Positions 1 to 12,020 of a DNA stretch of 64,000 nt are shown piece after piece. Numbering within the stretch: the stretch's first letter is position 1; each line of letters starts with the position of its first letter. The position numbers were made by a program, and so were the translations under genes. Source of the stretch: a virus. Under the pieces are notes generated by a model, which was not told the origin of the DNA, searched no databases, and was given only the letters and a program-made list of their open reading frames with translations. The DNA lies in the IMG/VR virus record IMGVR_UViG_2974548309_000001, positions 1 through 64,000 of that record. One strand, given 5' to 3'.

Positions 1-56
1 ACTTCACACAAATAATTTTTAACTAAAGTACCCCCCCCCCCATACTTCACACAATC

Positions 57-73
57 TAGAGTCTTCGACTCTA
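57..73 (+). promoter_or_regulatory. Hairpin (7-bp stem tagagtc/gactcta, 3-nt loop ttc) followed by cTGGAG; candidate N4-type vRNAP early promoter hairpin (template-strand loop GAA)
   Basis: Perfect inverted repeat with a 3-nt loop read directly from the sequence. Four more hairpins with the same architecture and downstream TGGA lie upstream of early genes. N4 vRNAP promoters are known to be 5-7 bp stem / 3-nt loop hairpins. Confidence 0.45.
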
Positions 74-174
74 CTGGAGTAATGCATCCATGTCTGCTTA
101 CTCGTATGAGCTATATGCCATATATTTGACATGGTCTGCCTATGGATACATAGGCTCCTTTAAATTGTCTGGAG

Positions 175-519
175 ATGTGTATGAAACTTGTAAACTCTAT
201 TGGTATCTTTCGTGCTGTGTCTTCTTCAACTGTATCTGCTCTCAATGCTATTGAGCGTGGTGCAGTAGCTGTAGCTAATACTGCAAATATGGCAGTAGCC
301 TTAACCGAATGGGGTAACGATGAGATTGAGAATCTCCGTCATCACCGTGCTATCAAGCGTGAGGTAGAAGGTGAAATCTTCCGTACCAAATACGTTATGG
401 AAGCAGCTAAAGAAGTGGCAGAGGTACATGCAGAAGCAACCAAAGCTATGGCTAATGCAGACCCGGATGTTAAAGCTGTGTTCGATGAACTGGTAGCTAA
501 GCACCTCAAAGCCAAATAA
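175..519 (+). CDS. Hypothetical early protein (114 aa; start may be Met-3 at 181)
   Basis: Intact ORF in the rightward early block, followed by a terminator-like hairpin. Confidence 0.5.
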   Translation: MCMKLVNSIGIFRAVSSSTVSALNAIERGAVAVANTANMAVALTEWGNDEIENLRHHRAIKREVEGEIFRTKYVMEAAKEVAEVHAEATKAMANADPDVKAVFDELVAKHLKAK

Positions 520-525
520 CCGTAT

Positions 526-555
526 GCCTACTCTTCGGAGTAGGCTTTAAAAATT
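526..555 (+). terminator. Hairpin gcctactc-ttcg-gagtaggc followed by tttaaaaatt; probable intrinsic terminator
   Basis: 8-bp stem with a UUCG tetraloop, directly after the 175..519 stop. Confidence 0.4.
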
Positions 556-843
556 AAAAGCAGAACAGGAACAAAAACAAAAACAAGGTCACACATCAAA
601 AACAAGAACACACATAGGGCCTAAGATAGATAGTAAGTAAGCACTCTGGAGTGTTCACACAACACAATCTGGCAGGTAAGTACTGTATACATATACACTG
701 TATATAGATACATATCGATTCTGAAGCCTGTACGGTACCTAGGAGAAGAGCTAGGGAAAGGTAATAGGGTAGGATACCTGAACCTATTTAAATTGATTCT
801 AGATACCTTACAAGCCTTATACATCACCGAGAAACTACCTCTT

Positions 844-856
844 GTACCTTCGGTAC
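844..856 (+). promoter_or_regulatory. Hairpin gtacc-ttc-ggtac followed by tcgTGGAT; candidate vRNAP early promoter
   Basis: 5-bp stem with a 3-nt ttc loop, about 30 nt upstream of the ORF at 886. Same architecture as 57..73. Confidence 0.4.
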
Positions 857-885
857 TCGTGGATGAATAAGCCAGAGGCACTCAA

Positions 886-1197
886 ATGGGAATCATCAGA
901 CCTATCATTGGTTCAATTCCAGAACCATCAACCCGAGTAGTCAACAAGTACAAGGAGCCATACGATGTCTATATCGGCAGAGGTAGTGTATGGGGAAATC
1001 CTTATACAGTTCAAGCATATGGCAGAGAATTATGCATTGCAATGTACGAGCAGTACATACGTCAGAGACTACATCAGGAACCTGACCTATATCTACAATT
1101 ACTTGAGCTTAAAGGTAAGACATTAGGCTGTTTCTGTAAGCCTAAAGCATGTCATGGAGACATACTTATCAAGCTCATAGAAGAGTATTCAAACTAA
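886..1197 (+). CDS. Small early protein with a 'YIGRGSVWGNPY' motif, possibly DUF4326-like
   Basis: Intact 103-aa ORF. The R-x-S-x-WGNP(F/Y) motif is recalled from the DUF4326 family (recalled from memory, unverified). Confidence 0.45.
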   Translation: MGIIRPIIGSIPEPSTRVVNKYKEPYDVYIGRGSVWGNPYTVQAYGRELCIAMYEQYIRQRLHQEPDLYLQLLELKGKTLGCFCKPKACHGDILIKLIEEYSN

Positions 1198-1544
1198 TAC
1201 TCTAACTATCCCAATTCCAGTCAAACATACCATAGACCACTTAGAGACTATCTGGGTGGTCAGGAGAACTAATGTGCATACATTCAAATTCTATTTCTTA
1301 GATGGCTCAGTTGAGCAAGGCAAGGGTACATCTGTATCAGATGCATTCACAAAATTAGGTTATGGAGCAGGTGCTATTGCTTCATTAGATTACTATGAGC
1401 AACTCAATTAGAGAGAGCTAGTATGCTCAGTCAAATAACAGTATTGGAGTGTGTTCAAATTGAATGGGAGAAATATAACTATCTGCCATTCATTGACCGT
1501 TACAAACTAGTCTCACTTATCAAAAGAATACTGGAGAACTAATT

Positions 1545-1943
1545 ATGTCATACAAAGTTGTTAAATCATGGGTTACTGAAGCTGGTCTGAATGCATGTGT
1601 ACTGCTGGTCAATGATGGTTCACATCATTGTGGTTACGTAGAAGTTCCAGCAGCCATTGAGAACAAAAGGTTCGATGGGCATGGAGACGATGATGTATAC
1701 ATCACAGCACATGGAGGTATCACCTATCAGGGAATACCAGACTGGTCTAACGGTAAGACTGTCATCGGCTTTGACTGTGCTCATGCAGGTGACAGGATGA
1801 AATGCCCGGAGAAGTTCAAAGGTACAGTTATGGAGCACTCATTCATCTACACAGATGGAATCTGGAGAGATGAGGAGTACTGTGCTGATGAGTGTGAAGC
1901 TATTGCTGAACAGTTAATTAACTTAGTGCCAAAGGTGAATTAA
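1545..1943 (+). CDS. Hypothetical early protein (132 aa)
   Basis: ORF with GGAG-like RBS context; no recognisable motif. Confidence 0.5.
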   Translation: MSYKVVKSWVTEAGLNACVLLVNDGSHHCGYVEVPAAIENKRFDGHGDDDVYITAHGGITYQGIPDWSNGKTVIGFDCAHAGDRMKCPEKFKGTVMEHSFIYTDGIWRDEEYCADECEAIAEQLINLVPKVN

Positions 1944-2048
1944 ATGGATATCTGGTATACAGAGTTATTCTGGTCTTTGATTGGTGCCATTGTAGGTGGC
2001 ATCACTGTCTATTTAGCTATCAAATATGGGGATAACCATGATGCGTAA
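1944..2048 (+). CDS. Possible small hydrophobic peptide (34 aa, MDIWYTELFWSLIGAIVGGITVYLAIKYG...)
   Basis: Short ORF absent from the ORF track; it contains a single predicted TM helix. Speculative. Confidence 0.2.
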   Translation: MDIWYTELFWSLIGAIVGGITVYLAIKYGDNHDA

Positions 2049-2165
2049 ATCATTAATCCAGGGTACCAAAGCAGACGTAGCTCGCATGAAGAAGAGAGAG
2101 CTGGCTAAGCAGACAACACGTAGTGATAACTGCGCTCCTCGTCGTATTGTTACGTTTAATCATCC

Positions 2166-2543
2166 ATGTATTCAGGAGGTCTCTTGAAAGTAATCGTAGC
2201 CGGTGGAAGGGACTTCACCGACATGGTGTACATGGACTCATGCATCAAGCAATTAGTCATGGATGGCAGCATCTCTGATAATTCAGAACTGGTGTGTGGC
2301 ATGGCTCGTGGTGCTGATATCACAGGGTTTAACCTTTGGTACTATCACTACAAGCTACCTATCCATAAGTTCTACGCTGACTGGAAGTCAGAGCCTAGAC
2401 GTGCAGGATTCATTCGCAATGAAGACATGGGTGATGTGGCTGATGTGCTGGTAGCATTCTGGGATGGTGAATCCCGTGGTACTAAGCACATGATTGACTA
2501 CATGACCAAGCTGGGCAAACCAGTCTTTATCTTCAAGTATTAA
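2166..2543 (+). CDS. SLOG / DUF2493 (YspA-like Rossmann) family protein; likely true start is TTG at 2184 after AGGAGG
   Basis: Motifs 'VIVAGGRDF' and 'VCGMARGADITG' resemble the SLOG/DprA-LOG glycine-rich loops. Confidence 0.5.
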   Translation: MYSGGLLKVIVAGGRDFTDMVYMDSCIKQLVMDGSISDNSELVCGMARGADITGFNLWYYHYKLPIHKFYADWKSEPRRAGFIRNEDMGDVADVLVAFWDGESRGTKHMIDYMTKLGKPVFIFKY

Positions 2544-2550
2544 TCTTCAT

Positions 2551-2567
2551 CACCGTCTTCGACGGTG
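2551..2567 (+). promoter_or_regulatory. Hairpin caccgtc-ttc-gacggtg followed by gTGGAG; candidate vRNAP promoter
   Basis: 7-bp stem, ttc loop, TGGA 2 nt downstream. Confidence 0.4.
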
Positions 2568-2604
2568 GTGGAGTTCTCCCTTAAGTTCTCCTTTCCCCTG
2601 TAAG

Positions 2605-2619
2605 AGCGACTTCGTCGCT
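2605..2619 (+). promoter_or_regulatory. Hairpin agcgac-ttc-gtcgct followed by ggTGGAA; candidate vRNAP promoter (second of a tandem pair)
   Basis: 6-bp stem, ttc loop; 43 nt upstream of the ATG at 2662. Confidence 0.4.
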
Positions 2620-2661
2620 GGTGGAATAATCCAAAAACCATTAACTATCGAGGTAATTATC

Positions 2662-3093
2662 ATGGCTACTATCAACAACTCTAACGAAGCTCGTTCTATC
2701 ATCGGCGCAGCGCTGGGTGGTAAGGGTAACGGAAATCGTCAGCAGTCCGGCGACCGTCCGCAAGCTGAATTCTTCATCAACATCGGCGTAACCGTTCCGA
2801 TGCCTGATGAAAACGGGGATATGGTGGATACCTTCCTGTCTCTGCCGTATGGCCTGCCGCTGGATACCATGAGCGAGCTGGTTATCCGTGGTAACAACGA
2901 GGTCTGGAACAATCAGGCCGCTGCCCGTAATGAGCTGCTGAAAGCTCTGGTGAAAATGGGTAGCGAGCTGGAAGCGGGTAGCGGTCAGGAGCTGCCGAAA
3001 TTGCAGGTTCAGCTCTATCGCCGTAAAGAGCAGACCGAGCATACCGCATCCACCAGCGCGGTCAGTGCCATCCTGAATGCACTGTCGTCGTAA
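2662..3093 (+). CDS. Hypothetical early protein (143 aa) with host-like, GC-rich codon usage
   Basis: Intact ORF whose GC content is sharply above that of its neighbours. It is flanked by tandem hairpin promoters upstream and a strong terminator downstream. Confidence 0.6.
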   Translation: MATINNSNEARSIIGAALGGKGNGNRQQSGDRPQAEFFINIGVTVPMPDENGDMVDTFLSLPYGLPLDTMSELVIRGNNEVWNNQAAARNELLKALVKMGSELEAGSGQELPKLQVQLYRRKEQTEHTASTSAVSAILNALSS

Positions 3094-3101
3094 TCAGTAA
3101 T

Positions 3102-3129
3102 GGGAACCTTCGGGTTCCCTTTATTTTTT
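3102..3129 (+). terminator. Intrinsic terminator gggaacc-ttcg-ggttccc + tttatttttt
   Basis: Perfect 7-bp GC-rich stem, UUCG loop and a T-run. Confidence 0.7.
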
Positions 3130-3138
3130 GGAGGGGAT

Positions 3139-3321
3139 ATGCGTCTATTAGCAGTGTTTCTACTGTTTATGGTTTGTTTCGGCAAGATAACAATAACCAT
3201 TGTTGATGAAGATACAGTGCAATACCGGCATCAAATGAAATGTGTCAAAGAGAAGATTGCCAACGGAATTCCTCGTAGTGCAATCAAGTTAACTACTGAT
3301 TCATGTGAGGTCATCAAATGA
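3139..3321 (+). CDS. Small hydrophobic protein (60 aa, MRLLAVFLLFMVCFGK...)
   Basis: ATG 9 nt after GGAGG, immediately downstream of the terminator. It corresponds to the 3' part of track ORF 3100..3321. Confidence 0.4.
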   Translation: MRLLAVFLLFMVCFGKITITIVDEDTVQYRHQMKCVKEKIANGIPRSAIKLTTDSCEVIK

Positions 3322-3485
3322 ATATATTCCTGTTGTTGCTGTTTATAGTGCTGCGCACGTTCACTGGGTTGTGTTGGTTTATAGCATCAGCGATATGGTT
3401 CCTGTTCTGTGTAATGATTGGGATTATATGCCTACCTCATTACATAGGTGTATTGGTCAGAACATTAAACAAGCCCTCGAAATGA
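3318..3485 (+). CDS. Small membrane peptide (55 aa, MNIFLLLLFIVLRTFTGLCWFIASAIWFLFCVMIGII...)
   Basis: ORF under the 60-aa track cutoff, ATGA-overlapped with the previous stop and strongly hydrophobic. Preferred over track ORF 3305..3745. Confidence 0.35.
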   Translation: MNIFLLLLFIVLRTFTGLCWFIASAIWFLFCVMIGIICLPHYIGVLVRTLNKPSK

Positions 3486-3514
3486 GGGCTTTAACATGCC
3501 GCTGGGAGATAGTC

Positions 3515-3745
3515 ATGAATAATGAACTACTTATATTTCTTAACGCCTTTGTAAGATCTAATACTTATAAGGGCAGATCGAAAATCTGTTCAACACTTCA
3601 ATCAGAAGCTGAAAACTGTCAAGGAGCTTCATGTAGTGAATGTATCATAATGACTCAACATATATTTGAATATGAATATCCAATAGTAATTATAAATGTG
3701 AGTCAGGCAATTAATCCTAAAGGATGGGATATTAATGAATCCTGA
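3515..3745 (+). CDS. MNxELIxIL-family small Cys-rich protein (member 1; MNNELLIFLNAF...CQGASCSEC)
   Basis: Internal Met of track ORF 3305..3745. It shares the N-terminal motif with six other small ORFs. Confidence 0.45.
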   Translation: MNNELLIFLNAFVRSNTYKGRSKICSTLQSEAENCQGASCSECIIMTQHIFEYEYPIVIINVSQAINPKGWDINES

Positions 3746-3959
3746 ATTAATAGAAATATTCAGAGCCATGAGATTAAAAACCTCATCTCTAATGGCACAT
3801 GATATAGGTCCATTAGATTTTATTTGTGAGTGTATAGAATTTAATGCATTAGATTGGTGTGGAATAAAAGGGGGATGTGACCATTGTCTTTTAGGTACTA
3901 AAGAAGTATTTGGATATTCCAATCAAATAATAGTTACTAATAAAAGACTATATAAATAG
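3735..3959 (+). CDS. MNxELIxIL-family small Cys-rich protein (member 2; MNPELIEIFRAM...)
   Basis: ORF carrying the shared N-terminal motif and Cys pairs (CECIE...CDHC). Confidence 0.5.
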   Translation: MNPELIEIFRAMRLKTSSLMAHDIGPLDFICECIEFNALDWCGIKGGCDHCLLGTKEVFGYSNQIIVTNKRLYK

Positions 3960-4003
3960 GACTATCGATATTGGTAGTCCAATATCAATGTCTTGTTAGA
4001 TAG

Positions 4004-4270
4004 TTGTCAATCCAAGAGGATATCAATATGTCAAAGAAAGTAAAAGAAACTAGTAAAGTAGGAACTGTTAATCTGGGGTATGTTCCTGAATATACAGTGA
4101 CTTACAGTCGTGAAGAGAAGATATGGGGTGTCCATATTAATGGTACATCGGTATATATTCTCAAGCGTCCTGTTAATAAAAAGAACATGTACTATGTTGG
4201 TACACGTTATTTCAAAACTCTAAGGGATGCTATTTTCAGTGTAGTCATTGGAAGTACTATGCCCTTCTAA
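4004..4270 (+). CDS. Hypothetical protein (88 aa)
   Basis: Intact ORF. Confidence 0.45.
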   Translation: MSIQEDINMSKKVKETSKVGTVNLGYVPEYTVTYSREEKIWGVHINGTSVYILKRPVNKKNMYYVGTRYFKTLRDAIFSVVIGSTMPF

Positions 4271-4279
4271 GGGGTATGT

Positions 4280-4450
4280 ATGAACCAAGAATTAATTATT
4301 ATTCTCTCATCCATTTTGGATAAACATCTTTGCTTTAAATTTAAAGCTATAAATTGTGCTGGAATATCATGTCGTAATTGTTGTATTGATAAAAAGCAAA
4401 TTGATAATTACGTATACCAACTAATTCAATTTGGAGAGAGAATACTATGA
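4280..4450 (+). CDS. MNxELIxIL-family small Cys-rich protein (member 3; MNQELIIILSSI...CRNCC...FGERIL)
   Basis: 56-aa ORF below the track cutoff, found by hand. Its stop overlaps the next start (ATGA) and its C-terminus 'GERIL' is shared with member 4. Confidence 0.45.
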   Translation: MNQELIIILSSILDKHLCFKFKAINCAGISCRNCCIDKKQIDNYVYQLIQFGERIL

Positions 4451-4632
4451 ATAAAGAATTGATAGTTATTCTTAGAGCTATTCGTAGTACAGAAAAACTA
4501 TGTCATGAGACTAAAGATTTATTTAGTTGTGATAGTGTTGAATGTGATTCCTGCCCTTTAATGAAAAAAGTATTTACCTCAGAAAAATTTTATATAACTA
4601 AATTTCTTGAATTAGGTGAAAGAATACTATGA
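4447..4632 (+). CDS. MNxELIxIL-family small Cys-rich protein (member 4; MNKELIVILRAI...CDSVECDSCP...LGERIL)
   Basis: ORF with ATGA overlaps at both ends. Confidence 0.5.
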   Translation: MNKELIVILRAIRSTEKLCHETKDLFSCDSVECDSCPLMKKVFTSEKFYITKFLELGERIL

Positions 4633-4859
4633 ATAGGGAACTAATTAAAATAATAGAATCTCTATGTAATAGAGTTGAATATACTTCAAGCTCAGGAATT
4701 ATATTCATCGAAAGTAAACCTGAATTATGTAGGCTTATGAGATTACATAGAATCCCTAAATGCTCAGGTGTTCAATGTGATAATTGCTACTTTACCAGAA
4801 AAGATTTAACTGAAAATATCTATATATTCTGCCTTCATAAAGTTATTCAGACGTTCTAG
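4629..4859 (+). CDS. MNxELIxIL-family small Cys-rich protein (member 5; MNRELIKIIESL...CSGVQCDNC)
   Basis: ORF carrying the shared N-terminal motif. Confidence 0.5.
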   Translation: MNRELIKIIESLCNRVEYTSSSGIIFIESKPELCRLMRLHRIPKCSGVQCDNCYFTRKDLTENIYIFCLHKVIQTF

Positions 4860-4880
4860 TTTTCCTGTCGCTTCGCTCCT

Positions 4881-4893
4881 CAGCCTTCGGCTG
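4881..4893 (+). promoter_or_regulatory. Hairpin cagcc-ttc-ggctg followed by tagTGGGT; candidate vRNAP promoter upstream of the macro-domain gene
   Basis: 5-bp stem with a ttc loop, the same class as 57..73. Confidence 0.35.
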
Positions 4894-4925
4894 TAGTGGG
4901 TAGAATTCAACAATCAGAGGTAAAA

Positions 4926-5429
4926 ATGAGAGAGGCAAAGGGCAATATCCTTGAGATGGATTGTGATGCTGTATGCATTACGACCAATGGATTTGTAAAA
5001 AGTAATAGTGCTGCTGTAATGGGTGCAGGTATTGCCAAGCAAATGCGTATGGTAGTTCCAGGCTTAGATAAAGTGCTGGGACTTAAGATTGCGCAGGAAG
5101 GTAATAATGTACATGCATTACTGACTCACAATGGTATCTGGGTAGTATCATTTCCAGTTAAACCAATCACTGAAATCAGTGATGGTACAAACTTTGTTAA
5201 GCATAAGTTCTTCCCGGAAGGTCAGACAATTCCAGGCTGGGCATGTAAAGCTAAAATCGATTTGATTGAGCGTTCATGCAAACAGTTGGTTCAACTTGCT
5301 AATCAATATGGTTGGCAGAAAGTTGTATTGCCTCGACCGGGATGTGGTGCTGGTGAACTACAGTGGAGAGACGTTAAGAAACGTATCGAACCATTGTTAG
5401 ATGACAGGTTTGTTGTTTGCACCTATTGA
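4926..5429 (+). CDS. Macro-domain (ADP-ribose binding/processing) protein
   Basis: 'GNILEMDCDAVCITTNG...GAGIAKQ' matches the macro-domain 'GDIT..DAIVNAAN..GGGV..AI' core. A downstream 'PRPGCGAGEL' matches the second glycine-rich loop. GAGG RBS 6 nt upstream. Confidence 0.6.
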   Translation: MREAKGNILEMDCDAVCITTNGFVKSNSAAVMGAGIAKQMRMVVPGLDKVLGLKIAQEGNNVHALLTHNGIWVVSFPVKPITEISDGTNFVKHKFFPEGQTIPGWACKAKIDLIERSCKQLVQLANQYGWQKVVLPRPGCGAGELQWRDVKKRIEPLLDDRFVVCTY

Positions 5430-5436
5430 GGTGTTT

Positions 5437-5643
5437 ATGAATCAAGAACTGATATTTATTTTAAATGCAATACATGAAACCCCGGATGAAAGAGCAGGAA
5501 AAGGAAAAGACATATTGTGCAGATGTGTATATTGCACAGATATATTATGTAAATGTTGTCCATTTGATGCTCAGCTATTAGAACTATCTCCCGACGAACA
5601 TTTCGTCGCTCAAATCCATAAATCAATGGAAGCCATATCATGA
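5437..5643 (+). CDS. MNxELIxIL-family small Cys-rich protein (member 6; MNQELIFILNAI...CRCVYCTDILCKCC)
   Basis: Internal Met of track ORF 5401..5643; carries the shared motif. Confidence 0.5.
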   Translation: MNQELIFILNAIHETPDERAGKGKDILCRCVYCTDILCKCCPFDAQLLELSPDEHFVAQIHKSMEAIS

Positions 5644-6152
5644 ATTACGATACTCAACTCCTCATTGATGATTTCAAGCATCATTTCAAATACCAACCTG
5701 ATGGGACGTTGATTCGGCAGAACAATCGCAGAAATGACTTAAATGGACAGGTAGCAGGAACCTTAACCAAGAAGGGATATGTTCAAATATCCTTTAAGGG
5801 GAAGTTCTATTATGCTCATCAAATAATCTGGGCAATCCACCACAACGAATTTGTGAAACAGATTGACCATATTGACCGTGTTAAACATCACAACTGGATT
5901 GAGAATTTACGCAAAGCTACAGCACAAACCAATGCTTATAACAAACAAGGTTCAGCCCGTGGTGGTAGTAAGTTTAAAGGCGTCTATTGGGCACCTCATG
6001 CCAAAAAGTTTGTAGCAAGAATTACAGTCAATAAACAGGTCAAGCATCTAGGGTATTTCGACGATGAGTACAAAGCTGCTGAAGCCTATAACAAAGCTGC
6101 TGCGATTCATCATAAACAATTCGCCTGTACGGAGCTGTCCAATGAGCAATAG
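5640..6152 (+). CDS. HNH homing endonuclease with C-terminal AP2 DNA-binding domain
   Basis: 'IDHIDRVKHHNWIENLR' is an HNH core. 'GVYWAPHAKKFVARI...LGYFDDEYKAAEAYNKAA' is AP2-like. Confidence 0.7.
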   Translation: MNYDTQLLIDDFKHHFKYQPDGTLIRQNNRRNDLNGQVAGTLTKKGYVQISFKGKFYYAHQIIWAIHHNEFVKQIDHIDRVKHHNWIENLRKATAQTNAYNKQGSARGGSKFKGVYWAPHAKKFVARITVNKQVKHLGYFDDEYKAAEAYNKAAAIHHKQFACTELSNEQ

Positions 6153-7071
6153 CTACGAAACTCAACGTTTAATAGAAATGATGTTTAGCAAGCACCAAGC
6201 TCGTGACCTCATAAGAAAAGAATTAAAAGAGTCACCAGATATTATGGAGCTAGTTAATAAGGCAGTAGAGAAAGCCAAAGAATGGCAGATGGGTGATTAC
6301 TTTGAAAGTAAGAATCGTCGATTAGCTATTCTGGATTCAGATATATTTGAAGATTTTTATATCGATGTAGCTGGTTCATTAGCTCAATTCGGTGTAGCCA
6401 AATACACTCAGATAGTTGGTATGGTTTCAGGCATGATTAAAAACATGTCTCAAAAAGAAGCCATACGAACTGCTGGAGAACTTATTGGTTTAGCAGCAAT
6501 CGTAGATTTGGTAGATGTAATACCAGCCAAGCTCAGTAACACTGGTTCAATGGAATTGGTTAGTCGTATCCAGCTTGAACCAAAAACTCTCAAACTCATC
6601 AATCAGTATCAGTACCTTCCTCCAATGGTAGTCCCACCAAGACCTGTTAAAGATAACAAAGGTAGTGGGTATCTATCTATTGAATGGGATTCTCTAATCC
6701 TGAAGAACAATCATCATGAACTGGATATCTGTCTGGATAATATCAACAGATTTAATTCAGTAGCGTTTGCACTGGATGACCGTGTTATCCGAAATATCCG
6801 TGATAACCGTAAGCATCTGGACTCGCCCAAGAGTGAGGAAACTCATGATGAATGGCAAGCACGAGTGGAGTCGTTCCTGAAAATGGAACGTGAATCCATG
6901 AAGGTATTTGCCATGTTAATTAACGAAGGAAACAGGTTCTATCTGACTCACAAGTATGACAAACGTGGTCGTACTTATTGTCAGGGGTACCATGTGTCCT
7001 ATCAGGGTAATACTTATCGTAAAGCCATACTTCAGTTGGCTGATAAAGAACTCGTTCCAGTGGAGGAATAA
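6142..7071 (+). CDS. N4-type RNA polymerase II, small subunit (T7-like RNAP N-terminal-equivalent fragment)
   Basis: Lies immediately upstream of the catalytic T7-like fragment. The chosen start is the ATG overlapping the HNH stop. Assignment is from N4 gene order. Confidence 0.5.
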   Translation: MSNSYETQRLIEMMFSKHQARDLIRKELKESPDIMELVNKAVEKAKEWQMGDYFESKNRRLAILDSDIFEDFYIDVAGSLAQFGVAKYTQIVGMVSGMIKNMSQKEAIRTAGELIGLAAIVDLVDVIPAKLSNTGSMELVSRIQLEPKTLKLINQYQYLPPMVVPPRPVKDNKGSGYLSIEWDSLILKNNHHELDICLDNINRFNSVAFALDDRVIRNIRDNRKHLDSPKSEETHDEWQARVESFLKMERESMKVFAMLINEGNRFYLTHKYDKRGRTYCQGYHVSYQGNTYRKAILQLADKELVPVEE

Positions 7072-7307
7072 TGGCTGAATTATCTAAACCAGAACAACTC
7101 ATCAAAATCACTTTGTTGTTACGTGATATCCCGGATGAGTTGGAAACTCACTTCTGTAGTACCCATCCTGCATGTGAAAAGTTCTGTGGTGAGTCTCACG
7201 ACAAAACTAAATGTGCATTGTTCTATATGTCAAAGGATGAAATTAAACAGACCATCTTTGGTCTGGATTCAGCAGGGAGGCTGCTGGGAATCATTCCTGA
7301 TGAATAA
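7071..7307 (+). CDS. Hypothetical protein (78 aa)
   Basis: Intact ORF between the two RNAP II subunit genes. Confidence 0.4.
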   Translation: MAELSKPEQLIKITLLLRDIPDELETHFCSTHPACEKFCGESHDKTKCALFYMSKDEIKQTIFGLDSAGRLLGIIPDE

Positions 7308-7509
7308 TAAACTTTTAATTATTTTGTCAGAATTAAGATATTGGGCTGTATCAAATAATACAGTAGCAGCTTGCAAAGGTAACTACCTTAATATAGCTGA
7401 TTGGGGTAAATGCGAATTCTTTTGCATGTATTGCTGGCTAGTACAGACCAAATCTAAGAAGTATTACGCAGATAAAATTATCCAAACTTTCTCTCAACTT
7501 AATAAGTGA
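7300..7509 (+). CDS. MNxELIxIL-family small Cys-rich protein (member 7; MNNKLLIILSEL...CEFFCMYC)
   Basis: Internal Met of track ORF 7123..7509, overlapping the upstream stop. Confidence 0.4.
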   Translation: MNNKLLIILSELRYWAVSNNTVAACKGNYLNIADWGKCEFFCMYCWLVQTKSKKYYADKIIQTFSQLNK

Positions 7510-8744
7510 GACTCAAGATGCAGACGTTCACTCCGTTCCAGTATATCAAATTAGATATTGCTAACTCCTTTGGTTTAGACAAGGAGTTGTTTGAGGACCG
7601 GTTAAACTGGTTCGAAGCAAATAAAGATAACTTATCTGGTTTGGTGGATGATGCAGATGAACCTGCACAATTCTACGCAGGTAAGTTGTGCTATGAAGAT
7701 ACCAAGGCAGGACTGCCTACAGGGTATCTGGTAGGTATGGATGCTACTGCATCTGGTCTACAGTGCATGGCAGCACTGACAGGCTGTAAAGTCACAGCAG
7801 AGACTGTGAACATGGTTAATCCTGATGTACGTCATGATGCATACACCGATGGCTATAAAGTCATGGGTGACCTGCTGGATGGCAAACTGGATAAGATTGA
7901 ACGTTCTCATACCAAGGATGCGACTATGACCCATTTCTATGGGTCGAGAGCTAATCCAGTAAACCTGTTTGGTGAGAACACCATAGAGCTTCAGAAGTTC
8001 TATGAAATGGTTCAAATCATTGCTCCAGGTGCAAACATGCTCCGTGACGATTTGATTGCCCTATGGCAGGCAAATGCCCTACAGCATCACTGGACACTTC
8101 CAGATGGATTTAATGCTGTAGTTAAAGTCATGGTTCCGATGGAAGATAGCTTTGAAGTTAATGAACTGAATAGCTCGTTCACTCATCGTTATTGGGTTAA
8201 CCAAGGTCAGAAAGCTGGTCTGTCACTTGCAGCAAATGTCATTCACTCAGTAGATGGGATGATTGTTCGTGAGATGAATCGTCGTGCTAACTACGATTTG
8301 CTCAAAGTACAGCGTGTATACGAGCTTCTGACGAGTTCTACTAAGGCAGGCAGTGTTAAGCCTTCAGTAAGTGATACAAGGCTTGCACAGGCTCTTAAAT
8401 TAACTGAATCCCATAAGTTTGTATCTGCTGTTCTGATTGAGTTTATCGACCATCTCAATATTCACATGGTTCCTCATTGGGTTCGTAAAGAACTAATTGA
8501 AATCATTGAGAAGATGTTAGCTCATAAACCATACCCGATAGTGTCAATTCACGATTGTTTCAAATGTCATCCTCTATACATGAATAATGTACGTCAGAAC
8601 TATATCGATATCTTTGCACAGATTGCTGACAGCAATATGCTGTCTGCTATTGCATCTCAGATATCTGGTAAGCGTATTCCTGTCGCTAAGCTGTCTAACG
8701 ACCTGTCCAAATATATCCGCCAGAGTAATTACATGTTGAGCTAA
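7506..8744 (+). CDS. N4-type RNA polymerase II, catalytic subunit (T7-like single-subunit RNAP palm/fingers)
   Basis: 'GMDATASGLQCMAAL' matches T7 RNAP motif A, 'DGSCSGIQHFSAML'. 'SIHDCF' matches motif C, 'HDSFGT'. First ATG at 7518. Confidence 0.7.
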   Translation: MRLKMQTFTPFQYIKLDIANSFGLDKELFEDRLNWFEANKDNLSGLVDDADEPAQFYAGKLCYEDTKAGLPTGYLVGMDATASGLQCMAALTGCKVTAETVNMVNPDVRHDAYTDGYKVMGDLLDGKLDKIERSHTKDATMTHFYGSRANPVNLFGENTIELQKFYEMVQIIAPGANMLRDDLIALWQANALQHHWTLPDGFNAVVKVMVPMEDSFEVNELNSSFTHRYWVNQGQKAGLSLAANVIHSVDGMIVREMNRRANYDLLKVQRVYELLTSSTKAGSVKPSVSDTRLAQALKLTESHKFVSAVLIEFIDHLNIHMVPHWVRKELIEIIEKMLAHKPYPIVSIHDCFKCHPLYMNNVRQNYIDIFAQIADSNMLSAIASQISGKRIPVAKLSNDLSKYIRQSNYMLS

Positions 8745-8750
8745 AATCCT

Positions 8751-9131
8751 ATGTCTATCTTCACAGCTGTAACTATCGATATTGACCCGTCAGGTCATTA
8801 CGTAGGTATTAACCGTGACCGTATACGTGACTCTCTCGGGTACATACCTGAGATTGTTAATCGTGCTGTTTTATCTTCTGAAAATGAAGATGATGTAGGT
8901 CACAGGATTTGGGAAGTCTACTCATATGGGGAGCCTATGCTCCCTTCAGAAACTGAATCCAAATTCAGTAATGGTTTACTAACCTATCCGGGAGATGAAC
9001 CGCAATATCCAATTGCTGTTTATTATCTGAATAACACCAAAGGGCTTGATATCAAGTTCTGGCAATACGAGCGAGCCATGACCGTGTATACGGTCAATGG
9101 CGAAGCGAGACTAATCGGGAGAATGGATTAA
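8751..9131 (+). CDS. Hypothetical protein (126 aa)
   Basis: Intact ORF. Confidence 0.5.
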   Translation: MSIFTAVTIDIDPSGHYVGINRDRIRDSLGYIPEIVNRAVLSSENEDDVGHRIWEVYSYGEPMLPSETESKFSNGLLTYPGDEPQYPIAVYYLNNTKGLDIKFWQYERAMTVYTVNGEARLIGRMD

Positions 9132-9478
9132 TGATTACTATCGGTTTAATGATGAGAATGCAGTTTATCAAAGACCCTGAAGGTCATGGGTCTAACGTAA
9201 TTATCAAAGCATTTTATTACGACAAGGTTTGGGTACAACATGAACAATCAGGTGTCGATGAGTTAGTAGATATCGCTGATGTTGCATTCCGTAGCCCAAT
9301 TCCGGGTGATGCCCCTAACCACGACCTTATTGCCAGAGACCTTAGAGGTAAATGGCTCTTCTGGAAAGCTGAAGATGGATACTGGTATGAATGCTCAGAC
9401 CCAACAATCCCAACCACAGCCGAATACCAAGGTGAGGTTGAAGCCTATTCGGGCGAAGAACCTAAAACCCTTCACTAA
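9131..9478 (+). CDS. Hypothetical protein (115 aa)
   Basis: Intact ORF with ATGA overlap. Confidence 0.5.
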   Translation: MITIGLMMRMQFIKDPEGHGSNVIIKAFYYDKVWVQHEQSGVDELVDIADVAFRSPIPGDAPNHDLIARDLRGKWLFWKAEDGYWYECSDPTIPTTAEYQGEVEAYSGEEPKTLH

Positions 9479-9479
9479 G

Positions 9480-9635
9480 ATGTATGCCTGGGATGGAAAT
9501 ATCTATCCCATTCATAACGTCTTTATTAATGAATCTATCAAGATTTATGTTTGGGATGGATGGAAATATATCTCTGTCCTCCTACACCCCGAGGATTATG
9601 TATGCGTAGTTGTAAACGAGCAGTACTTGATGTAG
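9480..9635 (+). CDS. Small protein (51 aa, MYAWDGNIYPIHNVF...)
   Basis: ATG 2 nt after the upstream stop. Confidence 0.3.
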   Translation: MYAWDGNIYPIHNVFINESIKIYVWDGWKYISVLLHPEDYVCVVVNEQYLM

Positions 9636-9883
9636 CACTGCTCACTCTAATTCTATCTGCAATTATGATTGGCTTTATATCAGCTGCCTACGGCAGCGAT
9701 TCTGGTATTAATCCAACGTTCGAGAAAGTCGATATTCAGCGAGTACATGATGGCGATGCTGATGTGACTTGCTGGGTACTTTATGTACCCGGAACTCGAA
9801 AAATTATCAACCATACCAGTGATAGTTACAGTATTAGTTGTCTCCCAAATTCGGCTATCAGTCCAAAAGGAACCGATAAATGA
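9602..9883 (+). CDS. Small membrane/secreted protein (93 aa) with N-terminal hydrophobic segment
   Basis: 'MRSCKRAVLDVALLTLILSAIMIGFISAAYG' looks like a signal-anchor. Internal Met of the track ORF. Confidence 0.4.
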   Translation: MRSCKRAVLDVALLTLILSAIMIGFISAAYGSDSGINPTFEKVDIQRVHDGDADVTCWVLYVPGTRKIINHTSDSYSISCLPNSAISPKGTDK

Positions 9884-10065
9884 AGCTTGCCTTCTATTTA
9901 GTAGTCACCCTAATTGTTACTCTTATTTTATATGTTGGGGTACTACCAGCCATGATTTCTGCAAAAGATACCATGTCAGTGTTAGGCGGTATCGCTATTA
10001 CAGTCCTTTATCCGGTATGTCTGTACCGTATTTTTAAACCTCTGATTAGGAAATATTTCCCATGA
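9880..10065 (+). CDS. Small two-TM membrane protein (61 aa)
   Basis: Hydrophobic ORF with overlapping start/stop coupling. Confidence 0.45.
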   Translation: MKLAFYLVVTLIVTLILYVGVLPAMISAKDTMSVLGGIAITVLYPVCLYRIFKPLIRKYFP

Positions 10066-10922
10066 AAAAAGTATTTTTGACAGTTGCACTAGTATTAGGT
10101 GCACTAACTTTAACTGGCTGTGACCGTGTAGAACCGGGCCATGTTGGTATTAAAGTGAATAAGCTGGGCGACGACAAAGGCGTAGGCGAAGTTGTTGGCG
10201 TAGGTCGTTACTGGACTGGTTGGAACACAACCGTCTATACGTTCCCAACGTTCAAGCAGATGAAGACGTATGACGATACGTTTAACTTCCAAATGTCAGA
10301 TGGTACAACTATTGGCTATCACATCGGTATGGCCTACAAGGTCAACCCGACCAAAGTGACCACTGTCTTCCAAACGTATCGTAAAGGTGTCGATGACATC
10401 ACCGATACGGACATGAAACAGAAAATCGCTGATAGCCTCAACCGTCTGGCTAGCCGTATGACCACCGACAAGTTCATTGACGGCGGTAAAGCTGACCTTC
10501 TGGATGCTGCGCTGAAAGAAATGCAGGAAGAGATGGCTCCAATTGGTATCGACGTCATCAGTCTGTCCTACGTTGGGAAACCGGAATACCCGGAAACCGT
10601 TATCGCTTCTATCAATGCGAAAGTGACTGCGAACCAGACTACGCTGCAACGTACTCAAGAAGTATTGCAACGTGAAGCAGAAGCAAACATGGCTCGTGCT
10701 CAGGCAGATGGTGCTGCTGACGTTAAACGTAAAGAAGCACAGGCAGAAGCTGATGCCGTTATCATGAAGGCAAATGCTGAAGCAGAAGCTATCGCTAAAG
10801 TAGGTGAAGCCCTGAACCGCTATCCTCAGATGAAAGACCTTCGGTCTATTGAGAAGTGGAACGGTGCTCTGCCAACTTATATGACGCAGGGTAGTGTTAC
10901 CCCGTTCGTATCATTTAAGTGA
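10062..10922 (+). CDS. SPFH/band-7 (prohibitin/HflC-like) lipoprotein
   Basis: Signal peptide plus the lipobox 'LTLTGC'. The central SPFH-like region and the Ala/Glu-rich coiled-coil tail are typical of band-7 proteins. Codon usage is GC-rich. Confidence 0.6.
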   Translation: MKKVFLTVALVLGALTLTGCDRVEPGHVGIKVNKLGDDKGVGEVVGVGRYWTGWNTTVYTFPTFKQMKTYDDTFNFQMSDGTTIGYHIGMAYKVNPTKVTTVFQTYRKGVDDITDTDMKQKIADSLNRLASRMTTDKFIDGGKADLLDAALKEMQEEMAPIGIDVISLSYVGKPEYPETVIASINAKVTANQTTLQRTQEVLQREAEANMARAQADGAADVKRKEAQAEADAVIMKANAEAEAIAKVGEALNRYPQMKDLRSIEKWNGALPTYMTQGSVTPFVSFK

Positions 10923-11009
10923 TTCTATGCCCTCTTTGGAGGGCATTTTAATTTTTTATAAATGCTATAGGATGCTATGGCATTTCTACAAAGTTAAACA
11001 GGAACTCTT

Positions 11010-11459
11010 ATGCAAGTTAAACTGAGAACTCTCGTTTTTAAAAATCCTTCAATGTGTATCCCAGCTCCAGCTACTGATGGTTCTGCTGGCGTAGATTTAA
11101 GAGCTAATGTGGCTATGCCATTTACTCTTGCTCCGGACGAAACCAAACTGGTTGAAACTGGTATTGCTATTCATCTGGAAGATGTATCAAAAGCAGCAAT
11201 GATTCTTCCTCGTTCTGGCTTAGGTCATAAGCACGGTATTGTGCTGGGTAACCTCACTGGCCTCATTGATAGTGACTATCAGGGAGAGCTTATGGTGAGC
11301 TTGTGGAATCGCTCTACAGAGCCTTTCACAGTTAACCCTGGTGACCGTATTGCCCAGATGGTAATCGTCCCTGTAGAGCGTCCTGAATTCGTTGTAGTAG
11401 ATTCATTTGAGTCTACTGAACGTGGTGAAGGCGGCTTTAATTCAACAGGGACTAAATAA
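11010..11459 (+). CDS. dut: dUTP diphosphatase (dUTPase)
   Basis: Trimeric-dUTPase motifs are present: 'GSAGVDLRA', '[15 protein letters not shown]', '[11 protein letters not shown]' and 'GDRIAQMV'. Confidence 0.9.
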
Positions 11460-11632
11460 TGACTGAGCCAATGAATAAATTCGATTGGGAAAGGCATAAG
11501 CATAATATCGCTGAGATAGATAAAGCGATTGTTGGTCACGAAGCTGAGATAGCTCGTCTACAAGAAGAGCGTCGTGAGTATATCAATCGCCATAACTTAA
11601 ACAAATGTCTCGATAAAACCTATCCTGTCTAA
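11459..11632 (+). CDS. Small hypothetical protein (57 aa)
   Basis: ORF below the track cutoff, overlapping the dut stop. Its own stop is embedded in the downstream hairpin. Confidence 0.3.
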   Translation: MTEPMNKFDWERHKHNIAEIDKAIVGHEAEIARLQEERREYINRHNLNKCLDKTYPV

Positions 11633-11653
11633 GCGCCTACGGCGCTATTTTTG
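11632..11653 (+). terminator. Hairpin agcgcc-tac-ggcgct + ttttt (terminator; member of the stop-anchored hairpin family)
   Basis: 6-7 bp GC stem followed by a T-run. Confidence 0.6.
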
Positions 11654-11659
11654 GTTAGA

Positions 11660-11685
11660 GCCACCTCCGGGTGGCTTTATTTTTT
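11660..11685 (+). terminator. Intrinsic terminator gccacc-tccg-ggtggc + tttatttttt
   Basis: Perfect stem and T-run, 8 nt after the previous hairpin (a tandem terminator pair). Confidence 0.7.
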
Positions 11686-11696
11686 AGGAGAACCAG

Positions 11697-12020
11697 ATGG
11701 CTAAAGAATCAGGTTCAAAACTGAATGTAGAGTTGGGCGATAAGTATATTGTTACGTCCAACAGCTATACGTTTGTTTTGGTCGAACGTAAAAAGATTAA
11801 GAGTGGTGTTAAAGCAGGTCAGGACCAGTTTGCCAACTGTGGTTACTTCCAGAACCTTAACAGCTTAGCCAAATTCTTAATCAACAAAGAGATTCGTGAA
11901 AGCGAACTCACTTCATTACAGCAGATAGCCGAACGAGTGGATGAACTCGGAGAAGGTATCGGTAAGCTGTTAACTCAAATTATCAATCAATCTGAAGGTA
12001 AAACAGATGGAAAAGATTGA
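11697..12020 (+). CDS. Hypothetical protein (107 aa)
   Basis: ORF with an AGGAG RBS. Confidence 0.5.
   Translation: MAKESGSKLNVELGDKYIVTSNSYTFVLVERKKIKSGVKAGQDQFANCGYFQNLNSLAKFLINKEIRESELTSLQQIAERVDELGEGIGKLLTQIINQSEGKTDGKD

Follow-up and report, generated by a model that had tools for sequence, protein, structure and literature searches.

Seven short open reading frames (ORFs) between positions 3515 and 7509 of a viral genome record (IMG/VR IMGVR_UViG_2974548309_000001, positions 1 to 64,000; these 64,000 nucleotides are referred to as the window) constitute a true paralogous family of small Cys-rich proteins, which share one scaffold and four invariant cysteines and vary in copy number among related phages. 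Window positions 3000-8000 are 100% identical to Klebsiella phage Pylas (MH899585 / NC_049444), an N4-like podophage (Schitoviridae, Humphriesvirinae, Pylasvirus), and window coordinates are also Pylas genome coordinates. The seven genes, all on the + strand, are gp12 (3515-3745, 76 aa), gp13 (3735-3959, 74 aa), gp15 (4280-4450, 56 aa, the minimal member), gp16 (4447-4632, 61 aa), gp17 (4629-4859, 76 aa), gp19 (5437-5643, 68 aa, acidic), and gp23 (7300-7509, 69 aa, basic). ORF listing and translation returned exactly the ORFs, coordinates, and N-terminal strings that an earlier sequence-only reading of this DNA had reported. The ORFs are spread over three reading frames, which excludes a frame artifact as the explanation of their N-terminal likeness. 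In the GenBank record of Pylas, all seven are annotated coding sequences (CDSs) with ribosome-binding sites, labeled "hypothetical / novel uncharacterized."

A paralogous family of small Cys-rich proteins

The earlier proposal of a tandem paralog family was borne out by hidden Markov model (HMM) statistics. In a six-frame scan, the start MN-x-[EKQ]-L-[ILV] is combined with C-x(3-5)-C-x2-C only in the seven ORFs. When the window was translated in all six frames and searched with an HMM built from the seven, only these seven were retrieved (E = 1e-15 to 1e-27; next match 0.15), and a profile of 128 family sequences found all seven at E = 1e-11 to 1e-18, with noise at 0.1. In leave-one-out tests, six of the seven members were found again (E = 1e-6 to 1e-12). 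The remaining one, gp23, was missed by the profile of the six other Pylas copies (E = 0.12) and was found at E = 1.2e-8 with a 92-sequence family profile purged of all gp23-like sequences. No further copy was found in the rest of the Pylas genome (the last 6.5 kb, beyond the window).

An exhaustive HMMER scan of 1.84 billion representatives recovered ~100 clusters (50% identity) at E <=0.001, nearly all of which are 57-89 aa long and carry the same signature. When gp19 and gp17 were searched by tblastn against 50,697 phage records, matches came only from Humphriesvirinae phages (Klebsiella, Salmonella, Shigella, Escherichia), many of them at unannotated positions, and every genomic context examined was a Humphriesvirinae-type early region. 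Two candidates were rejected: phage N4, whose best six-frame match (E = 0.03) is gp13, an unrelated CxC...CxxC protein, and P0048 (1117 aa), a spurious match to bacterial Ig/cadherin repeats.

One could argue that the ORFs are non-functional, i.e., a repeated DNA element or gene-calling noise in the AT-rich early region, with the 5' end conserved at the nucleic-acid level, e.g., for the initiation of translation or for recombination. The conserved 5' motif does serve as a recombination site (see below), and several members are unannotated in relatives, both of which would agree with such an origin. However, the codons for Leu5, Ile8, and Leu9 vary synonymously to a large extent (six different ones for Leu5), thus the N-terminal motif is selected as a protein and not as a nucleotide signal. 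Purifying selection is seen as omega <1 in all measurable pairs of family genes, the four Cys and the C-terminal Tyr are kept across the ~100 clusters down to 25% identity, and the ORFs are intact in every phage examined, with Shine-Dalgarno sequences or coupled starts. Non-functional repeats are an extremely improbable explanation, which we regard as effectively refuted.

No meaningful match to Pfam or NCBIfam was found for the seven proteins or for the 128 aligned members, the Pfam hmmscan of which gave only two stray, unrelated matches. The seven proteins do match phrog_16571, phrog_28062, phrog_14146, and phrog_32354 over their full length (best match, gp19 vs. phrog_16571, E = 2.2e-11), all of "unknown function." These four PHROGs are earlier clusterings of these very proteins from public phage genomes; they split the family into at least four unnamed groups and record neither function, nor motif, nor paralogy. 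The searchable literature yielded no account of the family or of its motif, paralogy, or dynamics, and the family goes unmentioned in the genome announcement of Pylas, in the paper on Schitoviridae taxonomy, and in that on Shigella phage B2. What is known already is the proteins as database hypotheticals and four unnamed PHROGs, and the scaffold is without detectable relative. Multigene families of small, fast-evolving early proteins are in themselves familiar from phage and eukaryotic-virus biology.

Conserved scaffold and variable loops

Similarity among the members spans the full protein length and not the N-terminus alone, both when 31 members (six phages) are aligned and when 128 sequences are (residue numbers follow gp15). 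The N-terminal helix carries the motif MNxEL[ILV]xI[LI], in its extended form MNxEL[ILV]xI[LI]xx[IL], with Met1, Asn2, Glu4, Leu5 (invariant), Ile8, Leu9, and Ile/Leu12 as the conserved positions. All seven Pylas proteins read M-N-x-[ED]-L-[ILV]-x-I-[LIF] from residue 1, the exceptions being K4 in gp23, F8 in gp12, and F9 in gp13. The C-terminal helix carries Tyr44 (92%), followed by [ILV][ILV] at 48-49 and Leu/Ile55 (motif Tyr-x3-[IL][IL]). Across the 128 sequences, M1, N2, L5, I8, and Y44 are each present in at least 90%. The N-terminal motif was compared by eye with the beta-clamp-binding motif (QLxLxL), and this candidate was dropped as the conserved positions fail to align.

Between the two helices, Cys18, Cys26, Cys31, and Cys34 are each conserved in at least 99% of the 128 sequences. 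They follow the pattern C-x(5-17)-C-x(3-9)-C-x2-C, that is, one CxxC pair plus two further Cys. The spacing between the first and second Cys is 5-17 residues with a mode of 10 (a single one of the 128 sequences gave 1), that between the second and third is 3-9 with a mode of 4, and that between the third and fourth is 2 without exception. The four positions are Cys25/35/40/43 in gp12, Cys31/42/48/51 in gp13 (with an extra Cys33), Cys18/26/31/34 in gp15, Cys19/28/33/36 in gp16, Cys34/45/50/53 in gp17 (plus Cys13 and Cys68), Cys28/33/38/41 in gp19 (plus two more), and Cys25/38/42/45 in gp23. All seven combine this Cys spacing with Tyr/Phe-x3-[ILV][ILV], gp19 having Phe for Tyr.

Variation is confined to particular segments. 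Within orthologous lineages (defined below; n = 8-24), entropy is close to zero over both terminal helices and at the Cys, and it is high in the stretch before the first Cys, in the loop between the first and second, at the residues between the second and third, and over ~8 residues after the fourth. The sequence-only reading had pictured a conserved N-terminal handle followed by a hypervariable Cys-rich tail, which does not hold: the whole protein is a conserved scaffold that varies only in the loops surrounding the Cys site. Its statement that the C-terminal halves diverge and contain CxxC-type pairs is right in part, since there are variable loops and one CxxC, but the four Cys and the C-helix are conserved. 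Net charge is lineage-specific (-4 to -6 in lineage C, +2.6 to +6.6 in lineage B), and the overall pI ranges from 4.7 to 10.2. This variability in charge and loops agrees with a common scaffold that displays different surfaces at the tip holding the Cys site.

The structure was predicted with AlphaFold. A model of gp16 from 35 sequences was unusable, with a predicted local distance difference test (pLDDT) score of 57. The model of gp15 from 128 sequences (m9f182e9999fc) reached a pLDDT of 74.6 and a predicted template modeling (pTM) score of 0.48, and it has helices at 3-13, 17-20, 31-33, and 38-55 and zero strands. Confidence is 81-86 in the terminal helices and lower, 64-65, in the Cys region, which is expected because the model has no metal. 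The fold is predicted, with moderate confidence, to be a helical hairpin, the tip of which connects the two helices and carries the Cys site, and the invariance of the four Cys suggests that they converge on one site. A zinc ribbon (two CxxC knuckles on beta-hairpins and a three-stranded sheet), the fold that had been put forward for an AlphaFold check, is not supported, given the all-helical model and the single CxxC.

Four invariant Cys in a small helical protein could also point to nucleic-acid-binding zinc-finger or Fe-S regulators (WhiB-like, redox-sensing) that would reprogram gene expression of the host or the phage by binding to DNA or RNA or to a sigma factor. The WhiB-like (Wbl) Fe-S proteins known from actinobacteria and their phages are likewise small and helical, with four invariant Cys, several paralogs, and phage-encoded versions, and the multi-paralog organization of the family resembles theirs. 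A Pro follows the last Cys in 47 of the 128 members, and Pro at this place is frequent in Fe-S motifs. Lineages B and F (+1.5 to +5.5) are basic, and one member has a pI of 10.2. However, lineage C is strongly acidic and others are neutral, thus there is no common electrostatic character suited to nucleic-acid binding. The Cys motif of Wbl proteins is C-x(14-22)-C-x2-C-x5-C, from which the family differs in having short Cys spacers in the reversed order (x4 then x2), and the host range differs as well. Moreover, 0 of the 128 members match the Pfam Whib or zinc-finger models, and a profile search of PDB sequences found no relative (best E = 0.8, B-box/RING, not significant). DksA/TraR-type C4 zinc-finger proteins are small RNA polymerase-binding regulators that are also encoded by phages and plasmids; they were rejected as relatives, as none of the 128 members matches the zf-dskA_traR profile and the Cys spacing is unlike CxxC-x17-CxxC. 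We consider a regulator of this type quite unlikely.

Copy number, lineages, and a deletion in Pylas

Copy-number variation among related phages, which the sequence-only reading had proposed to look for, was found: the array holds 7 members in Pylas, 8 each in KpCHEMY26, MY01, and Pollock, 10 in Shigella phage B2, 12 in SP-058, and 16 in L008. The last of these, a divergent metagenomic Humphriesvirinae-like phage (Logan SRR33471241 contig, 3191-8420), has the same synteny and the largest array seen, and a few of its copies have apparently lost the first Cys. Many intact members are unannotated in deposited genomes, including five of the eight in KpCHEMY26 (4277-5028, 5606-5809) and five of the eight in MY01 (5279-6027, 6605-6808), as well as others in SP-058, FSL SP-076, S5, and B2. 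In KpCHEMY26, a spurious minus-strand CDS (3317-3430) is called near the array.

Members were clustered into lineages across six phages (Pylas, KpCHEMY26, MY01, Pollock, B2, and SP-058). Four lineages are present in all six, namely A (the GERIL type, gp15 and gp16), B (gp17), C (gp19), and D (gp23), and they follow the fixed order A, B, [macro], C, [RNAPII-a], [gp22], (F), D, [RNAPII-b], where the bracketed neighbors are described below. To the left of a homolog of N4 gp8, lineages differ by host group, with H, E, and N in Klebsiella phages and J, K, L, O, and P in Salmonella/Shigella phages; lineage I occurs in the left part of the array in Pollock and B2. In Pylas, this variable left part consists of gp12 (lineage H) and gp13 (lineage E, found in Klebsiella phages only).

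The C-terminal GERIL of gp15 and gp16 had been taken as the sign of a recent tandem duplication. Their sequences argue otherwise: gp15 and gp16 share 36% amino acid and 60% nucleotide identity, and gp15 is 55% identical to ORF 5179 of Salmonella phage SP-058. Because gp15 is closer to this ORF than to gp16, the gp15/gp16 split predates the genera.

A change in copy number can be traced at the same place. One more member is found between the orthologs of gp15 and gp16 in KpCHEMY26 and MY01; at this point Pylas lacks exactly 172 bp. The deletion junction lies in the shared start motif, within ATGAATAA(A)GAATT, and joins ATGAATAAAGAATT of the lost gene to GAATTGATAG of gp16. The first 9 nt of gp16 thus come from the lost neighboring member, and the Pylas gp16 starts at the ATG of that gene in place of the GTG used in KpCHEMY26. 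When the deletion was reconstructed, 122 of 128 positions matched Pylas. Because Pylas and KpCHEMY26 are 100% identical over the gp16 region, loss in Pylas is the parsimonious direction. Since the deletion joins the 5' motifs of two neighbors, the conserved 5' motif demonstrably acts as a site of unequal recombination.

Substitution rates and divergence islands

The earlier suggestion of a diversifying family was examined by comparing Pylas with KpCHEMY26 and MY01, the three Klebsiella phages being ~91-94% identical, for the family genes and 22 neighboring genes (Mann-Whitney P = 0.0004-0.0009). The family genes evolve faster, with a median amino acid identity of 79.5% vs. 95.5%, a median nonsynonymous rate (dN) of 0.116 vs. 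0.024, and a median omega of 0.39 vs. 0.10. Omega is ~0.98 for gp13 against KpCHEMY26 and ~0.5 for gp15/gp16, which shows relaxed or diversifying change in place.

A 30-nt sliding window further revealed islands of divergence inside the family genes. The gene ends are 97-100% identical and the rest of the region 90-100%, and nucleotide identity falls to 23-43% in the gp12 interior of KpCHEMY26, 30-57% in the gp19 interior of Pylas (against KpCHEMY26 and MY01), 40-63% in the gp23 interior of MY01, 47% in the 3' part of gp17 in MY01, and 67% in the center of gp13 in KpCHEMY26. The gp12 island is set in ~95% identical flanks, with gp12 being 26% identical to its KpCHEMY26 counterpart at a synonymous rate (dS) of 2.7. 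In the islands, dS is 0.75-2.7 vs. ~0.15-0.3 elsewhere. Given such high dS, the islands are best explained as alleles imported by recombination and not as products of in situ hypermutation.

Genomic setting and gene chaining

From left to right, the Pylas order is gp9, gp10, gp11, members gp12-gp13, gp14, members gp15-gp16-gp17, gp18, member gp19, gp20, gp21, gp22, member gp23, and gp24. The array lies on one strand between gp9, whose counterparts in relatives are annotated as the N4 gp2-like cofactor, and the genes for the RNAPII subunits; all seven members are single-domain proteins of ~55-90 aa and stand between the gp2-like and the RNAPII large-subunit genes. In N4, the injected virion RNA polymerase gives rise to gp1, gp2, gp15, and gp16 as early products (PMC4496689). 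By synteny with these N4 early genes, the array is therefore likely to be an early region. Sigma-70-like promoters are depleted three-fold in the first 12 kb (11 found vs. 33.5 +/- 5.8 in shuffles), which is consistent with a region not read by the host RNA polymerase. As a separate observation, terminator-like hairpins are enriched at 1-12000 of the window (15 vs. 6.7), including one at 3102-3119 just upstream of gp10.

The genes are tightly chained. The last 11 nt of gp12 overlap the start of gp13, gp22 and gp23 overlap by 8 nt, and ATGA overlaps link gp15 to gp16, gp16 to gp17, and gp19 to gp20; the first two of these, like the GERIL ends, are as the sequence-only reading had described them. 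The GERIL end of lineage A encodes the Shine-Dalgarno sequence of the next gene (GGAGAGAG / GGTGAAAG), the GERIL codons of gp15 serving gp16, and the frequent "-NE" end of other members is the ATGAAT of the next member read out of frame. The overlaps and the GERIL-encoded Shine-Dalgarno sequence therefore suggest translational coupling.

Two neighbors describe the company that the family keeps. The non-member gp14 (4028-4270, + strand), inside the array, is an N4 gp8 homolog (Pfam PF25713 N4_GP8, E = 1.8e-27), labeled "hypothetical" in the record despite its clear homology to the N4 gp8 DNA-replication inhibitor, and a homolog occupies the same position in L008. None of the seven members matches PF25713; only gp14 does. 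Between gp17 and gp19 lies gp18 (4926-5429, + strand), which encodes an ADP-ribose binding or hydrolyzing macro domain (Pfam Macro, E = 2e-4, slightly below the curated cut-off, with the record annotation in agreement) and holds the same position in all relatives. A setting of host takeover is supported by the N4 gp8 homolog inside the array and the macro-domain gene beside it.

The RNAPII subunit genes themselves, gp21 (6142-7071) and gp24 (7518-8744), both on the + strand with gp22 and member gp23 in between, were identified by the "N4 gp15-like / gp16-like" annotation of Pollock and by PF00940 in L008. In all cases gp23 is directly upstream of the large-subunit gene, and counterparts of gp19 in relatives are directly upstream of the small-subunit gene; in Pylas an HNH gene intervenes. 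This arrangement raises the possibility that the family members are accessory factors of the phage transcription machinery, binding RNAPII (gp21/gp24), the gp2-like cofactor, or the virion RNA polymerase in its assembly, specificity, or switching. Lineages C and D (and F) stand immediately upstream of RNAPII subunit genes with overlapping or abutting starts in the six phages and L008, lineages A-D are kept in order across genera, and gp22, a strictly conserved four-Cys protein, sits in the same slot. Yet N4 has RNAPII with adjacent subunit genes and is without a family member. Furthermore, the RNAPII subunits are 95-97% identical in the three Klebsiella phages while gp19 and gp23 fall to 41-58% identity, which is ill-suited to co-evolving partners, and the majority of members (7-12 in L008 and SP-058) are encoded at a large distance from the RNAPII genes. 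An accessory role in transcription is, in our judgment, unlikely.

Proposed role of the family

We propose that the family members are early-made, metal-stabilized mini-proteins, each lineage of which would bind a different host (or phage) target in takeover or defense evasion, with turnover by recombination at the gene ends; for this explanation as a whole we hold the chances to be about even. The N-terminal amphipathic helix would pack on the C-terminal helix (Y-x3-[IL][IL]) to form the helical hairpin of a small cytoplasmic protein. The four invariant Cys at the hairpin tip would bind a metal, most likely a structural Zn2+, with a small Fe-S cluster also possible. Lying in what is presumably an early region transcribed by the virion RNA polymerase and chained by 4-11 nt overlaps, the genes would probably share transcripts and be coupled in translation as soon as the DNA has entered. 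Every paralog lineage may then target its own host (possibly phage) macromolecule by stoichiometric binding or inhibition, its specificity residing in the variable loops, i.e., the stretch from helix 1 to the first Cys, the loop between the first and second, the knuckle between the second and third, and the segment after the fourth. Unequal crossover between conserved 5' motifs would remove or add whole members, and exchange with diverged relatives would swap gene interiors, with the conserved gene ends as anchors. An effector or anti-defense function of the family, as the sequence-only reading had suggested, may be read from these features of the sequences.

Several observations weigh against this proposal. 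The A-D order is fixed in all genera, with two lineages against the RNAPII genes, which would fit a phage-internal role too. The high dS of the most divergent alleles reflects allele replacement and not necessarily positive selection, and omega is <1 overall. Finally, confidence in the AlphaFold model is moderate. Functions of a kind other than those discussed here take up the remaining probability.

A more far-reaching form of the proposal, which we consider rather unlikely, is that of a cassette-type inhibitor repertoire built on a new metal-knuckle hairpin fold. The invariant gene ends, MNxELIxIL at the 5' side and the overlap with the start of the next gene at the 3' side, would serve as recombination anchors by which phages of the subfamily could exchange, lose, and duplicate tips, each directed against a different host target of defense or takeover. 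If true, this would represent a bacteriophage counterpart of the genomic accordion of poxviruses and African swine fever virus (ASFV), as well as a compact natural binder scaffold. The poxvirus genomic accordions and the ASFV multigene families are also tandem paralogs in a terminal, early-expressed region, the copy number of which shifts by unequal recombination and which diverge fast relative to core genes. Unlike them, the present family consists of bacteriophage proteins of 60-80 aa with a proposed metal-knuckle scaffold, and its copy-number change need not be adaptive. A functional analog is N4 gp8 (PF25713, "Bacteriophage N4 DNA replication inhibitor"), a small early protein from the same genome region that illustrates the type of job done by small early N4-type proteins; unlike the family, it is encoded in one copy and lacks a Cys motif, and the two are unrelated in sequence.

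Phages keep their host-takeover and anti-defense functions in small ORFan early genes, most of which are singletons and hard to prioritize. This family has the advantage of a scaffold of 60 aa that is marked by a clear signature and present in 7-16 diverged copies per genome, along with ~100 natural clusters and mappable variable loops. Its genes account for most of the divergence in the early stretch compared (~3000-7700) between near-identical Klebsiella phages that are therapeutic candidates. If the members are inhibitors of host factors or of defense, they would account in part for the strain-level host range of N4-like phages of Klebsiella, Salmonella, Shigella, and E. coli, besides being a source of new small inhibitors. 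Otherwise, they still represent a missing Pfam-level family, many copies of which are unannotated in deposited genomes.

Neighboring genes and other observations

The gene gp22 (7071-7307, + strand) lies between the two RNAPII subunit genes and encodes a 78-aa protein with four Cys (C29, C35, C39, and C48). It was considered as an eighth member on account of a similar helix/four-Cys/helix layout, and was rejected as it belongs to phrog_22821 (E = 1.4e-50) and aligns with the family at an hhalign probability of 1%. In stark contrast to the surrounding family, gp22 is 81-99% identical over Klebsiella, Salmonella, Shigella, E. coli, and metagenomic relatives, which makes it a candidate conserved partner of RNAPII. 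The record names 6142-7071 and 7518-8744 "virion RNA polymerase subunit," a misleading label, since by homology with N4 gp15/gp16 they encode the non-virion RNAPII heterodimer.

Only Pylas has an HNH/AP2-type homing endonuclease gene, gp20 (5640-6152, + strand), between gp19 and the gene for the small RNAPII subunit; KpCHEMY26 and MY01 lack it, and their sequences resume at ~6160. The interior of gp19, the most divergent allele of the region, adjoins gp20 and may have been co-converted with this mobile gene. Just upstream of the array, gp11 (3318-3485, + strand) encodes a small protein with two predicted transmembrane segments, which is unusually divergent among the three Klebsiella phages (69-78% amino acid identity, omega 0.34-0.42).

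In the whole-library search, one match had a different architecture (E = 8e-6). This 291-aa protein (P0090; L009 10001-10876) contains two internal copies of the Cys core LC...C-x-G-[VI]-x-C-x-N-C. It has no annotated neighbors and no homologs, and it provided no functional lead; its contig is phage-like but unrelated, with portal and terminase genes, and was binned as Candidatus Pacearchaeota. Outside the window, at Pylas 65954-66029 (L011 2055-2130), RefSeq annotates a "tRNA-Pyl" in a cluster of six phage tRNA genes, which is probably a suppressor-type or mis-called tRNA.

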